DNA of 63,072 bases, the filler included, from Reclinomonas americana ATCC 50394 (Eukaryota), in assembly GCA_048213135.1 (NCBI GenBank). It is 30 parts of 30 records of this genome, joined end to end, with 100 filler letters (N's around TTAATTAATTAA, not from the genome) between each part and the next. Parts side by side here need not be neighbours in the genome. Positions count along the whole stretch, not along the records: positions 20,186 to 22,306 come from AFZH01025024.1; 29 more parts are not named here. One strand, 5' to 3'. The translations under genes were made by a program, and so were the position numbers. Within the stretch, counting starts at the first letter, position 1. The number at the start of each line of letters is the position of its first letter. Under the pieces are notes generated by a model. The model worked only from the letters and a program-made list of their open reading frames with translations. It did not search any database and was not told the DNA's origin. Shown here one piece after another: positions 17,961-23,057 of this stretch.

Positions 17961-18631
17961 GCGAGGATCGGGTCGATGACGTGCTCGCGCACCTGCGCCT
18001 TCAGCTCGTCCTGCGAGATGTCGGGGTGGTGCTGCGTGGAGAGCACGACCGCGTCGACGGTCTTGGGCGTGAATCCGTCGTAGCCGAGGGTGACCTGCGT
18101 CTTGCCGTCGGGGCGGAGGAACGGCAGCAGACCGCTGCGACGCACCTCGGTGAGGCGCTCGGCGATGCGGTGCGCCGTCCAGGCGGCCATCGGCATGAGC
18201 TGCGGCGTCTCGTTGGTCGCGAAGCCGAACATGATGCCCTGATCGCCGGCGCCGAGCGCGTCGAGCGGATCGACGGACGAGCCGTCGCGGTGCTCCTGCG
18301 CATTGTCGACGCCGTGCGCGATGTCGGTGGACTGCTCACCGACCGAGATGCTGACACCGCAGGAGTCGCCGTCGAAGCCGGTCTCGCTCGACGTGTAGCC
18401 GATGCCGTTCACGACCTGGCGGACGATCGTCGGGATGTCGACGTACGCCTCGGTGCGGATCTCCCCCGCCACATGCACGAGGCCGGTGGTGACGAGCGTC
18501 TCCACCGCGACGCGCGAGCCCGGGTCCTTCGCGAGCAGACCGTCGAGGATGCTGTCCGAGATCTGGTCGCAGATCTTGTCCGGGTGCCCTTCGGTGACGG
18601 ACTCGGACGTGAACAGACGCAGCGCGCTCAT
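17961..18631 (-). CDS. metK: S-adenosylmethionine synthetase (3' truncated), actinobacterial
   Basis: [41 protein letters not shown]. Confidence 0.98.
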
Positions 18632-18722
18632 CGGTGCTCCAGAACGGGGACGGACGGTGGGAGGGGTGTTGCACCCATTCTGGACCGCGGCGCCGACAGA
18701 GCGGCGCGCGCGGCCTCGAATA

Positions 18723-18980
18723 TCACTCCGCGTGACGCAGGCGCAGCTTGTCCTCGTTGATCTCGTGCAGTGCGATGGTGAGCGGCTTGTCCTCGACCGA
18801 GGAGTCGACGAGCGGGCCGACGTTGTCGAAGAGGTTGCCCTCGTGCAGGTCGGAGTAGTAGTCGTTGATCTGACGGGCGCGCTTGGCGGCGTAGATCACG
18901 AGCTCGTACTTGGAGTCGACGCGGTCGAGCAGGTTGTCGATGGGGGGATCGATGATGCCCTTGGTGTGGTGTCCGGCCAT
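18723..18980 (-). CDS. rpoZ: RNA polymerase omega subunit
   Basis: [43 protein letters not shown]. Confidence 0.97.
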
Positions 18981-19045
18981 GATGGGACCTCCAGATCAGG
19001 CGACGGGATCGTCGCGAAGACAGTGCAATAGGCGCGACAGAGAAC

Positions 19046-19957
19046 TCAGCGCGCAGAGCCTGAGGACAATTCTACGACCTCGTGGGCGGCAGCGGCGACG
19101 TCCTCGTTCACGATGAGGTGATCGAACTCGTTCTGGGCGGCCAGTTCGACCTTCGCGGTGCGCAGTCGTCTGGCCCGTTCCTCGGCCTCCTCGGTGCCCC
19201 GGCCGACCAGTCGGTGGACCAGTTCGTCCCAGCTCGGCGGAAGCAGGAAGATGAGCGTCGCAGCGGGTTCGGCGCGCCGCACCTGACGTGCGCCCTGCAG
19301 GTCGATCTCGAGCAGAACGGTCTTGCCCGCAGCCAGGGCGGCGTCGATCGGCGCCCGCGGAGTGCCGTAGCGGGAGCGATTGTGCACCACGGCGTATTCG
19401 AGCAGTTCGTCGTCGGCGACCAGGCGATCGAACTCGGCGTCGTCCACGAAGAAGTAGCGCACGCCCTCGATCTCGCCGGGACGCGGAGGGCGCGTCGTCG
19501 CCGACACCGAGAGGTGGATCTCCGGGTTGTGCTCGCGGATGTGGGCCGCGACGGTGCCCTTGCCGACGGCGGTCGGCCCCGCGAGCACGAGCAGTCGGCT
19601 GCGTGCGCCGCGCGGCTCCAGCACAGGGAACCGGGAGTCGAGCCAGGACTCGAGGACGACGCGCTGACGAGCGCCGAGCCCGCCGAGACGCTTGACCGGC
19701 GAGATGTGCAGCTCCCCCAGCACGCGATCGCGCTTGCCCGCACCGATCGCGGGGAGGGCGAGGAGGAAGTCAGTGATCCGCATGGACCCTTCGACCGAGT
19801 CCGCATCCGCGGTGGCGCGGTGCAGCACCGTTTGCGGGGACACGACGCGCATCGTGAGATCGCGCTTCAGCGAGGCCCTGGCCCGTCGACGTTCCACGGC
19901 CCTGCGGGCGGCCGCCGCGCGGTCCACCTCGGGGACGGTCCGACGCACCTCAGACAC
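19046..19957 (-). CDS. gmk: Guanylate kinase with a fused N-terminal actinobacterial integration host factor (mIHF) domain
   Basis: C-part: GPTAVGKGT, SVSATTRPPRPGE, LLEIDLQGARQV. N-part: RRARASLK..LLALPAIG..ELHISPVKRLGGLGARQR (mIHF H2TH-like). Confidence 0.93.
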   Translation of the reverse strand: MSEVRRTVPEVDRAAAARRAVERRRARASLKRDLTMRVVSPQTVLHRATADADSVEGSMRITDFLLALPAIGAGKRDRVLGELHISPVKRLGGLGARQRVVLESWLDSRFPVLEPRGARSRLLVLAGPTAVGKGTVAAHIREHNPEIHLSVSATTRPPRPGEIEGVRYFFVDDAEFDRLVADDELLEYAVVHNRSRYGTPRAPIDAALAAGKTVLLEIDLQGARQVRRAEPAATLIFLLPPSWDELVHRLVGRGTEEAEERARRLRTAKVELAAQNEFDHLIVNEDVAAAAHEVVELSSGSAR

Positions 19958-20085
19958 TGACGACCTCCCGGTATTCGGCGGCGCGGGCGTCGATCGCTGC
20001 GGCGAGTCCGTCCGGACCGGCGGAGAGGATGCTGCGGCTCTCGCTCGCGATCACGGCATCCGACATCCGTCCGAATCGTGGACGC
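19950..20085 (-). CDS. pyrF: Orotidine-5'-phosphate decarboxylase, C-terminus (5' truncated)
   Basis: VIASESRSILSAGP..*; expected position in the actinobacterial pyrF-mihF-gmk-rpoZ operon. Confidence 0.8.
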
Positions 20086-20185: not shown

Positions 20186-21367
20186 CTGCGTACAACAACG
20201 CAGTCTCCTTTGTGCGCAAGTGAGTGCATGAGCATGGTGTGGTGATTGCAAGCGGTGGTGTCTCATTCACTTGTGCATATCAACCACGCAGAGCGGCCAT
20301 TGTCAACGCGGTTCTCATTCTGCCACCATTTTCAACGGAAATGGGGCGCATGATGCAGAAACGGCAGTGGGTCGACTATCGCAACGAGTGGCAGAACAGA
20401 TGCATCGGACGCGACACAGTGCTCAAGATGCAATACTCTGGGTTCGGCCTGGTCAAGAAGTTGGCGGAAGCACTGGTGCGTACGTGTATCAACAGACCGA
20501 GTTGGCTTGATTTCTCACTCTCACTCACTCACTCTCTCTCTCTCTCTCTCGGTGTTTGTCTGTGCGTGTGCACAGGCTGCCAAGTCGAGAGTGCTTTCTC
20601 AACAGGATGCGTCGTTCGTTGAGCTGCTTGTATTGCCCTACTCCGAGGCGGGATCGACTATGCACTGCCCGGGTTGCGGACAAGGGAAGAAGGCGGAGAG
20701 CGCCAAGACGATCGTGTGCAACACTAATGAGTGCCCGCTGAAAGGCAAGACCATGTTCCGTGACGCTCGCGGTGCGTGGAACATTCTGTTGAGTTGCTTG
20801 GAGGTTTCGGAACGACTGCAGTCGCCGTCGCTCGCCAAGCGTCGGCGGCCAAACGAGGACGGTCGCGAGGTGGACGAGGAGGCGACGGAGCCCAAGAAGA
20901 AGAGGAGCAAGACGAGGGAGACCGAGCCGAAGTCGAAGAAGAAGAAGGCGAGAGAAGAAGAAGAAGGAGGAGGTGGAGGAGGAGTGGGAGGAGGAGGGGG
21001 AGAGAATGGAGGTACGTGTGCACGCACTCTTCTCGATGCTCTCGTTTCTCTTTCGTGCACTCTAATATGTGCTTTACAGGTCGTGGAGCCGTCGCCGCCG
21101 CCGCCCGCAGGGACGAGGCACTCGGCCAGACTTGCAGCTCAATTGCAAGCTCGTCGATCGCGAGCTCAACTGCAATCTGCATCGCGACCGGGAACAGACG
21201 TCGAGCACCGAATGCAACCGTGCGTGTCACTGATGTGCCCGCTATTATTGTGCTCAGTATCTATTGAGTTTGTACTCATTTGGTGTTCTCCCTTTGTTCG
21301 CAGCGAGGGTTTGGGTGATCCGTCTGATGTTGTGTCGGCGACAGCTGACGCGCAGGGGGTCCTGTAG
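20186..21367 (+). CDS. Fanzor2-like (eukaryotic TnpB) RNA-guided nuclease, C-terminal half; 5' truncated; introns 20220-20291 and 20476-20575, probably also 21012-21079 and 21220-21303
   Basis: Spliced: AYNNAVSFVRKAAIVNAVLILPPFSTEM..RCIGRDTVLKMQYSGFGLVKKLAEALAAKS..LVLPYSEAGSTMHCPGCG..KTIVCNTNEC..MFRDARGAWNILL, then a K/R-rich NLS-like tail. Confidence 0.85.
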
Positions 21368-21446
21368 ACCCTTAACTCATTTTCCAAGGAGTACGCCCAA
21401 ACTCATGTTGCGTCTCCGCTCAGACGTCCGTATGCATCGTTGTCAG
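21299..21446 (+). ncRNA. Putative Fanzor omegaRNA (scaffold about 21299-21426, candidate guide from 21427)
   Basis: 18-bp outer stem, three inner hairpins and a 7-bp pseudoknot (CGTCTGA 21321-21327 / TCAGACG 21420-21426); overlaps the 3' end of the nuclease ORF. Confidence 0.6.
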
Positions 21447-21797
21447 CTTGCATATGTCTCACCCCCTAGTCATGCGTGTGTGCAGAAACTAACTGTGTGT
21501 GTGAGTATGCGTGTCTCTCTGTGCGTGCTGTGTGTTCTACTTGTCTCTCCCTCCTCCCCTCTTTCGCTGTCTCTCTCCCTGTCTCTCTCCCTCTCTCTCT
21601 CTTGGCAGTTGCGTGAAATTTCCCTTTCCTGGGGTACTACTTATTGTTTCGTTGGGGTGTTGTCGTTGACCGCAAACCGTGTTCTCACCGCGTGCCCCCC
21701 TCGAGCTAGGAAAACCCCACCAAATCATGAATGTTACGCGAGAGCGAATAGAAGTGACTTTTATGATGTGTTGCTCACTTTTATGATGTTACTTAAG

Positions 21798-22260
21798 CGT
21801 GACTTTGTTGAGGAGCGCATCTGGATGCAAGACCGCATTCGTCTGCTTGAGCGGGAGCTGGGCGAGGTGCGGCGACAGGCGGAGAGTCGCGTGCACGAGG
21901 CCGAGTCGCGCGTGTTGCACGAGCAGCAAGTGGCGAGTGAGCGCGTGGCACGTGCACGCGATGAGGTGTTGCAGGAGCAGTTGGGCAAGTCGGTGGCGGT
22001 GCGGCGTGCGGAGGCGGAGCGGAAGCGCGTGGAGGAGAGTGTGAGGGCGGTGTTGGAGGCGCGTGTGAGAGAGTTGGAGGGCAAGTTGGGCGATGAGGAG
22101 CGGGCGGCGAGGTTGCGGCTGGATATGGCGGTGGAGCATGAGCGGCGTGCGTGGGAGCTGTCGTTGAAGCAGTGTAGGGATGAGGGCGCGCAGGCGTTGC
22201 GGGAGGCGGTCGAGGTCGAGGAGAGGAGGCGGGCGTTGGTGGAGGAGCGGCTGCGCGTGG
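21798..22260 (+). CDS. Coiled-coil protein exon (probable host gene downstream of the Fanzor locus)
   Basis: E/R/A-rich heptad sequence after a TTAAG acceptor. Confidence 0.55.
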
Positions 22261-23057
22261 CGCTCTTGAGTCTGGTGTGTGTGTGGCTAGCTGTCTATGT
22301 GTGTTANNNNNNNNNNNNNNNNNNNNNNNNNNNNNNNNNNNNNNNNNNNNTTAATTAATTAANNNNNNNNNNNNNNNNNNNNNNNNNNNNNNNNNNNNNN
22401 NNNNNNGGAGGAGGTGGAGGAGATGCGCGACGAGGTTTGTCTGGTGTGTTTGTGTTCAGCCAACACGCCAAATCCTCCAGATATGGCTGGCGTCGCAGCT
22501 CCCCGAGTCACCGGTGCCATCTGCTCCCGGCAGACAGATGTTTCCACCGCGGAACCAGAACCAGATCCATGCCCGGGCTGTGACAGTGCGCACAGGAAGC
22601 AGCTCGCCATCTTTTTTGTGGTCAATTCGAGCTTGCATTCGTGTGCGGTGTATTGCACGGATCACGGCCGTGAAATACGGGTTTTAAATCACGCCGTCGC
22701 CACGCCAAAAATTTGCTGCGCTGCGATCGTCGTCAGCTGTGAGGCGGTCACGCCCTGCCAGCCTCCGCCTCTTTCTCAACAAGTGTGCGGCTTCCACGCC
22801 GATTCAATGGCACGGTCCAGGGAGGTCGAGTTGCACCTGGTGGCGCATTTTGACTTCGTCCCCGGCAGGACTTGTCAAGGGTTGACCGGACGGGTCGTGT
22901 CGCATTGAGAATTGCCTACCATCCAAACACACGCCACTTTTCTGCGCCTCCGCCGAGCAATCACCACCACCACCACCTTCCCCTCAACCACTACCTTCAC
23001 CACTCCAATCCCCGCCTCCGAGCTCCCCCCACCACACACACACAATCCGAAATAATA

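Follow-up and report, generated by a model that had tools for sequence, protein, structure and literature searches.

The window analysed here is a stretch of 63,072 bases that consists of 30 short contigs (1.05-2.16 kb), placed in roughly descending order of length and separated by spacers of the form N..TTAATTAATTAA..N. A gene fragment lies at the 5' start of one of these contigs, at positions 20186-22306 (2121 nucleotides (nt), guanine-cytosine (GC) fraction 0.573), and its three coding segments, each in a different reading frame, together resemble the C-terminal half of a Fanzor. Fanzors form the eukaryotic and viral part of the TnpB superfamily, whose members are RNA-guided DNA endonucleases with a RuvC domain, and the fragment is likely a genuine, truncated and very divergent gene of this type (TnpB superfamily, the clade with an alternative catalytic Glu) with probable spliceosomal introns. 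The contig begins at 20186, directly after an N spacer, and the gene is therefore without its N-terminal half; the RuvC-I Asp, the WED domain and the REC domains fall upstream of this point, and a preliminary description of this DNA had rightly placed the RuvC-I Asp and the N-terminus off the contig. The features of the gene, in window coordinates, are as follows.

20188-20219, + strand: exon 1, partial, running off the contig 5' end; AYNNAVSFVR plus 2 nt of a Lys codon, the frame being open from the contig start and followed by a GTGAGT donor
20220-20291, + strand: candidate intron 1, 72 nt, GTGAGT..CGCAG, phase 2, GC 0.51, by splice consensus
20292-20475, + strand: exon 2, the probable RuvC-II region; GC by codon position 0.56/0.38/0.72
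20314-20331, + strand: LILPPF, its first Pro (20323-20325) probably on the column of the canonical TnpB catalytic Glu
20476-20575, + strand: candidate intron 2, 100 nt, GTGCGT..CACAG, phase 0, with a (CT)n tract, GC 0.51, by splice consensus
20576-21011, + strand: exon 3, with the alternative Glu, the TNB zinc ribbon, RuvC-III and a basic, acidic and Gly-rich tail; GC by codon position 0.53/0.49/0.69
20645-20647, + strand: alternative catalytic Glu, E24, aligned to the Glu of E.YTSKTC
20666-20734, + strand: four-Cys zinc ribbon (TNB domain), C-x2-C (20666-20677) and C-x4-C (20717-20734), with C31, C34, C48 and C53
20756-20791, + strand: RuvC-III motif FRDARGAWNILL, aligned to DRD.NgARNIl
20762-20764, + strand: RuvC-III catalytic Asp, D63
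20837-20953, + strand: Lys/Arg-rich stretch (KRRR ... KKKR ... KSKKKK), found by inspection of the translation
21012-21079, + strand: candidate intron 3, 68 nt, GTACGT..ACAG
21220-21303, + strand: further candidate intron, which together with candidate intron 3 would lead to a stop at 21316-21318

Exons, candidate introns and the 3' end of the gene

The preliminary description proposed that two introns join three frames into one peptide, and its coordinates, phases and quoted peptide are all recovered; splicing in silico yields 217 residues without an in-frame stop. The junctions were read from the DNA sequence alone, which counts against the model, and splicing is probable rather than observed. 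Both frame changes fall at an extended splice consensus with a pyrimidine tract, and exons 2 and 3 have a higher GC fraction at third than at second codon positions, unlike the introns. Intron 2 is the better supported of the two, since the spliced peptide aligns (Smith-Waterman) with its closest relative (L155, see later) across the exon 2/3 junction, and the alternative of reading through it would translate the (CT)n tract. Exon 1 and intron 1 are the least certain parts of the model, their basis being the splice consensus and the open frame; in a greedy hhalign alignment exon 1 falls on the helix that precedes the RuvC-II strand, and taken alone its match is not significant. Towards the 3' end, the candidate exon 4 that goes with the last two candidate introns (21012-21079 and 21220-21303) has a pattern of GC by codon position that differs from that of exons 2 and 3.

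The Lys/Arg-rich stretch in the tail of exon 3 looks, in translation, like a nuclear localisation signal (NLS), and the available part of Jiang et al. 2023 (PMC10530073) reports that Fanzors acquire such signals. Because short spliceosomal-type introns interrupt it, the gene would most likely reside in the nuclear genome of a eukaryote.

Homology of exon 3 to the TnpB/Fanzor C-terminus

Comparison of sequences and profiles establishes that exon 3 is homologous to the C-terminus of TnpB and Fanzor proteins, though it lies below every curated threshold. Pfam family PF07282 (Cas12f1-like TNB) matches it at an E-value of 1.7e-4, with residues 19-70 on profile positions 19-60 of 60, and the NCBIfam model NF040570 (guided_TnpB) at E=8.6e-4 over positions 341-387 of 389, which is the proper C-terminal place. 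A protein-language-model look-up returned PF07282 on 30 of the 30 matches listed (top score 0.94, 183 of 256 shared features), the first cluster being mostly Nucleocytoviricota.

Two separately built profiles gave the same answer. The canonical one was made from 23 Acidobacteriota TnpBs, NF040570 having been matched in 17 of 301 Acidobacteriota genomes, and with it the open reading frame (ORF) of exon 3 came top of the 1350 six-frame segments of the window (domain E=0.0025, profile 322-392 of 411; next 0.58). For the other, a motif scan of viral contigs found 122 loci, many in metagenome-assembled genomes of giant viruses, and 87 motif-bearing ORFs of at least 150 residues, every one of which (87/87) is recognised by the Acidobacteriota TnpB profile; the 48 viral Fanzor2-type ORFs of at least 370 residues form alignment A1. 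The best solved match of A1 is PDB chain 9b0l_P, named 'TnpB-like protein L79' (E=1.1e-90), which we take to be the mimivirus Fanzor2. The exon-3 ORF again headed all 1350 segments (E=9.3e-4; next best 0.27), and hhalign aligned exon 3 to A1 with a probability of 89.6% (E=1.9e-6), E24 pairing with the Glu of E.YTSKTC and D63 with the RuvC-III Asp. Smith-Waterman alignment of the spliced core to five metagenomic relatives gave z-scores of 9.9-12.2, and the real score was reached in 0 of 300 composition-preserving shuffles.

Several results pull the other way. The PF07282 score is 22.1 bits, under the curated cut-off of 26.3, and that of NF040570 is 18.7 bits against a cut-off of 100, the latter being set for a whole protein, of which one exon can hold only about a fifth of the profile. 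Against 1.84 billion representative proteins the exon-3 peptide had no match at E<=0.001, and no TnpB chain was matched when it was compared with the PDB by sequence. Nor was a relative found among the longer proteins of a word-indexed collection, and its 8-mers revealed no close relative among viral, metagenome and prokaryote contigs. A single-sequence AlphaFold2 model of exon 3 reached a mean predicted local distance difference test score of 49.6, and an alignment of the partial peptide by mafft --add was dropped because the peptide was misplaced. The preliminary description had proposed to compare the spliced peptide with TnpB/Fanzor profiles, and exon 3 does match PF07282 and the Fanzor2-type A1, with the reservation that the PF07282 cut-off is not reached.

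The missed cut-offs and empty large-database searches leave some room for a chance or generic zinc-ribbon resemblance in a gene unrelated to TnpB or Fanzor. A zinc ribbon alone is indeed non-specific, because two Acidobacteriota membrane proteins share only a ribbon of the MHCPGCGQ type; these were the matches on prokaryote contigs (L001:3046-3579 and L002:3001-3534) that were rejected as generic, pattern-only matches, and both are tandem small membrane proteins with the ribbon at the N-terminus. Such a coincidence is nevertheless very improbable for exon 3, where the match takes in the Glu before the ribbon and RD..GA.NIL after it at the right spacing, where three independent libraries name the same family, and where the top rank for both profiles and the pairwise z-scores agree.

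The catalytic residues were placed with A2, an alignment of exon 3 with 46 references. Columns E24, C31, C34, G35, C48 and C53 are invariant and the window matches every one of them, while of the columns conserved in at least 90% (Y26, T27, K29, T30, R62, D63, N69 and I70) it has R62, D63, N69 and I70. The references of A1 and A2 were gathered by a motif pattern that itself prescribes E, Y, T, K, T, C, C and G, and the constancy of these positions is therefore forced, which lessens what those columns can say; moreover, at the pattern-forced positions Y26, T27, K29 and T30 the window has G, S, M and H, and so lacks the conserved Y, K and T of YTSKTC, a further point to its disadvantage. At the unforced columns C48, C53, R62, D63, N69 and I70 the window matches six out of six. 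In the register of canonical TnpB, too, E24 stands two residues ahead of the Y-equivalent. In RuvC-III the window has R where the reference motif has N.

Both catalytic residues that are visible on the contig are thus intact, as had been proposed, with E24 on the alternative Glu column and D63 on the RuvC-III Asp column, and the A2 columns and the hhalign alignment to A1 agree with the earlier reading of displaced Glu, zinc ribbon and RuvC-III Asp in the order of a rearranged RuvC. The C-x4-C spacing had been listed among the divergent traits, and this point falls away, as the same spacing occurs in the giant-virus references L043 and L084. The available text of Jiang et al. 2023 (PMC10530073) describes Pro or Gly at RuvC-II with an alternative Glu downstream, at the position that E24 occupies, and reports that mutation showed this Glu to be essential in the mimivirus enzyme; to that extent the background given in the preliminary description on the rearranged RuvC of Fanzors and TnpBs is correct.

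The probable RuvC-II region and the class of the gene

Exon 2 is probably the RuvC-II region, an assignment that comes from its motif, order and spacing rather than from a significant score. In the A1 consensus llPkfetk, the Pro column corresponds in PDB alignments to the Glu of '..vEdLn..' in the canonical-type chain and to Gly in L79. Alignment by hhalign sets VLILPPFSTE of exon 2 on the 'IliP.f.t' block of A1, so the first Pro (20323-20325) would take the canonical Glu column. The LP.F.T block is also the best local match of exon 2 to A1, as well as the best local alignment of exons 1 and 2 in 4 of 5 pairwise tests, and in the greedy hhalign alignment spliced residues 2-152 run colinear with A1 columns 421-549 of 554, with two insertions.

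The statistics of this region speak against the assignment. The hhalign match of exon 2 is weak (P=0.012, probability 3.6%), and 128 of 5000 shuffles of exons 1 and 2 reach the score of the hidden Markov model, 12 of the 5000 doing so at that profile position. Pairwise Smith-Waterman scores for these two exons are not significant (reached by 171, 69, 952, 75 and 358 of 1000 shuffles in the five comparisons), and exon 2 alone had no match in Pfam or NCBIfam at E<=10. The Pro and the displaced Glu lie 74 residues apart, compared with about 51 in the first sequence of A1 and about 45 in the available text of Jiang et al. (PMC10530073). Two insertions are needed for this, and the stretch from RuvC-II to the Glu is longer by about 20-25 residues. 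Of the earlier proposal that LILPPF carries a Pro in place of the RuvC-II Glu, the alignment to the A1 Pro column stands, while its statistical support is weak.

Among the profiles tested, the Fanzor2-type one scores best for the window (hhalign probabilities of 88.6-89.6%, against 82.1% for the canonical TnpB profile), in a comparison that covered Fanzor2-type, canonical TnpB and ribbon-less rearranged profiles. Like the window, Fanzor2 and the IS607-type 'pro-Fanzor' TnpBs (mimivirus L79, PDB 9b0l) have a Glu two residues before (Y)TS, a four-Cys TNB ribbon and RD..GA.NIL in RuvC-III, in this order after a RuvC-II strand with Pro or Gly for Glu, a trait that the window would share if exon 2 is placed correctly. 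The window differs from them in having GST for YTS, a longer stretch from RuvC-II to the Glu, spliceosomal-type candidate introns and a long basic, acidic and Gly-rich tail. Canonical IS200/IS605 TnpB (ISDra2 type) and Cas12f share the ribbon and the RuvC-III motif with the window, but canonical TnpB keeps its Glu in the RuvC-II strand ('..E(D/K)L..'), a place probably taken by Pro in the window, and both are prokaryotic and intron-free, unlike the gene described here. A profile of 120 sequences for the rearranged, zinc-finger-less TnpB type, built around locus L026, gave no match to the spliced peptide, by hhalign or otherwise, which is a mark against the Fanzor-type reading. Locus L026 (1474-2700) is itself a TnpB from Acidobacteriota; it has Gly in place of the canonical RuvC-II Glu, carries an IEESYTSK motif and lacks the zinc-ribbon cysteines. 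In the search made with it, 7992 of the 8000 scored candidates lay at E<=1e-5, several of those with names being from cyanobacteria.

The preliminary description called the gene Fanzor2-like. What stands is a C-terminal half of Fanzor type in the TnpB superfamily; Fanzor2 as such is not established, because the rearrangement is common to all Fanzors and a subset of TnpBs, as the available part of Jiang et al. 2023 (PMC10530073) describes. In the portion of Yoon et al. 2023 available (PMC10711439), Fanzor1, Fanzor2 and the cyanobacterial 'pro-Fanzors' form a single clade characterised by DPG and the alternative Glu, and Fanzor1 is marked by kinked REC2 helices, REC1 insertions, a TDG motif in WED and a non-IS607 transposon context. 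The three protein hallmarks fall in the part of the gene that the contig lacks, and since the distinguishing features are N-terminal or outside the contig, the choice between Fanzor2 and Fanzor1 cannot be made from it. Fanzor1 copies such as those associated with Helitrons in Chlamydomonas have, according to the excerpt of PMC10530073, the same rearranged site as the window and are intron-bearing and adapted to the nucleus; when A1 was compared with the PDB at E<=10, no chain named as Fanzor1 was found. As a rough split, the chances of Fanzor2 or Fanzor2* are about even, Fanzor1 is the less likely assignment, and a protein that fits no class is less likely still.

The altered positions also bear on whether the gene still encodes a nuclease. 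It could be a Fanzor-derived non-nuclease, either a decaying transposon copy with intron-like frame breaks or a domesticated host gene that has kept the ribbon and the fold. The substitutions (GST for YTS, M and H for the K and T that precede the first Cys, R for N in RuvC-III) would fit this, as would the lengthened stretch from RuvC-II to the displaced Glu, the long low-complexity tail of exon 3 and a 3' gene model that does not resolve cleanly. No second copy and no N-terminal piece was found elsewhere in the 63,072-base window, where the next profile matches were at E 0.27 (A1) and 0.58 (canonical). Nor did Rfam identify a family on the contig or in the window, and the folds computed downstream of the gene (20960-21500) offered no convincing RNA structure, with z-scores of -1.92 for 21230-21500 (7 of 200 shuffles fold as well) and +0.39 for 20960-21240. 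Transposon ends could not be recognised on the contig, its repeats being limited to families of microsatellite type and a weak inverted pair of 19 nt, and neither a transposase nor an IS607 serine recombinase was present among the 40 ORFs scanned, namely 38 of the 82 that are 150 residues or longer and two further pieces of this contig.

Decay, however, would have had to leave all 217 spliced codons free of stops, both frame changes at an extended splice consensus with a pyrimidine tract, both visible catalytic residues and four Cys in place, and the excess of GC at third codon positions in the exons. Copy number, moreover, is not readable from one window of 30 short contigs. The non-nuclease alternative is for these reasons considered unlikely, and a genuine Fanzor-type gene with probable introns is preferred.

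Relatives, genomic setting and significance

The closest relative of the gene was found in a metagenome scan seeded with A2, in which 7 of 596 stretches passed tblastn against exon 3, with 33-38% identity. This relative (L155:192-2519) is a metagenome contig of GC 0.60 that is nearly filled by an uninterrupted Fanzor-type ORF of 776 residues, with the motifs DPGGRTF, FLPTLDT, SEAYTTKTC and DRDIAGSRNI and a long N-terminal extension. The contig under study shares a proportion of 0.07 of its words with a DNA run from a pond metagenome, three pieces of which are at least 99% identical to it over 20186-20624. One piece reaches 156 nt past the contig 5' end (20186), and one has a G>C change at 20345 that would turn a Gly in exon 2 into Ala. 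The pond run does not count as independent support, because it may be the source sample.

Most contigs of the window have a GC fraction of 0.53-0.61 and CT/GT microsatellites and are eukaryote-like, and the contig with the Fanzor-type gene is similar (GC about 0.57). A few others, with a GC fraction of at least 0.62, are free of repeats and look bacterial; the left-hand neighbour (17961-20085, GC 0.687) is one that looks bacterial and is distinct from the contig of the gene. The window thus looks like a mixed or metagenomic assembly. Other genes and ORFs in it are listed below.

304-1131, - strand: dynein heavy chain fragment (PF03028, E=4.2e-41, and an AAA lid domain)
19049-20050, - strand: guanylate kinase and an S13-like H2TH domain, on the contig of GC 0.687; probably bacterial and unrelated to the Fanzor-type gene
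21786-22304, + strand: Glu/Arg/Ala/Leu-rich, coiled-coil-like ORF that runs off the contig 3' end, in a frame open from 21234 to the contig end
31861-33036, - strand: long, uninterrupted WD40 beta-propeller ORF of 392 residues
59174-60634, - strand: long, uninterrupted WD40 beta-propeller ORF of 487 residues

Since the window includes a dynein heavy chain fragment, a eukaryote with such genes is present in the assembly. A PH domain gene is also among the eukaryotic genes on the contigs of GC 0.53-0.61, where the WD40 propeller ORFs, whose origin is less certain, are likewise found. The ORF at 21786-22304, on the same contig as the Fanzor-type gene, matched no Pfam family, and no relative of it was found.

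The gene might instead stem from a giant virus or from a viral element that has become endogenous, and not from the transposon complement of the host; this has to be weighed, as the closest profile and the leading language-model cluster are those of Nucleocytoviricota and Fanzor2s are enriched in large viruses, according to the available text of PMC10530073. Two to four short candidate GT..AG introns within about 1 kb do not sit well with such an origin, nor does the microsatellite and GC character that the contig has in common with most eukaryote-like contigs of the window. The window peptide also had no relative among the viral contigs, its best pairwise phmmer score to any of the 87 viral references being 15.9 bits, and a viral source is held to be improbable.

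If the gene is what it appears to be, the contig would carry the 3' half of a Fanzor-type gene, from the RuvC-II strand through to the end of the protein. A Pro would take the place of the canonical Glu and the displaced Glu would stand two residues before a degenerate YTS (GST), to be followed by the four-Cys TNB ribbon, the RuvC-III Asp in RD..GA.NIL and a long Lys/Arg-, Glu- and Gly-rich, NLS-like tail. Provided that an N-terminal half with WED, REC and the RuvC-I Asp is intact, the protein may, by analogy with other Fanzors, bind a guide RNA that the right end of the transposon encodes and cut DNA that matches the guide beside a short target-adjacent motif.

The divergence of the gene plausibly fits an unsampled protist lineage, as judged from sequence. 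A bolder version, which is speculative and on balance doubtful, would see in it a deep and unsampled branch of the Fanzors in a protist that is GC-rich and uncultured, with a remodelled active-site neighbourhood (GST for YTS and an enlarged linker from RuvC-II to the Glu) and a C-terminal NLS/acidic/Gly tail, standing between Fanzor2 and Fanzor1 or domesticated by the host. Were the domesticated variant true, an RNA-guided scaffold would be in use for something besides the maintenance of a transposon.

Fanzors are, to our knowledge, the sole eukaryotic RNA-guided DNA endonucleases, and they are compact candidates for genome editing. Intron-bearing and NLS-bearing Fanzors with a rearranged active site have already been described as widespread in eukaryotes. 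The practical value of the present gene hinges on recovery of the full locus, since only half of the gene, and no guide RNA, is at hand. Reading across frames and introns, as here, can recover members of the family that ORF-based gene calling on metagenome contigs misses, and divergent, intron-bearing copies from unsampled protists help to trace how Fanzors spread and adapted after leaving bacteria.

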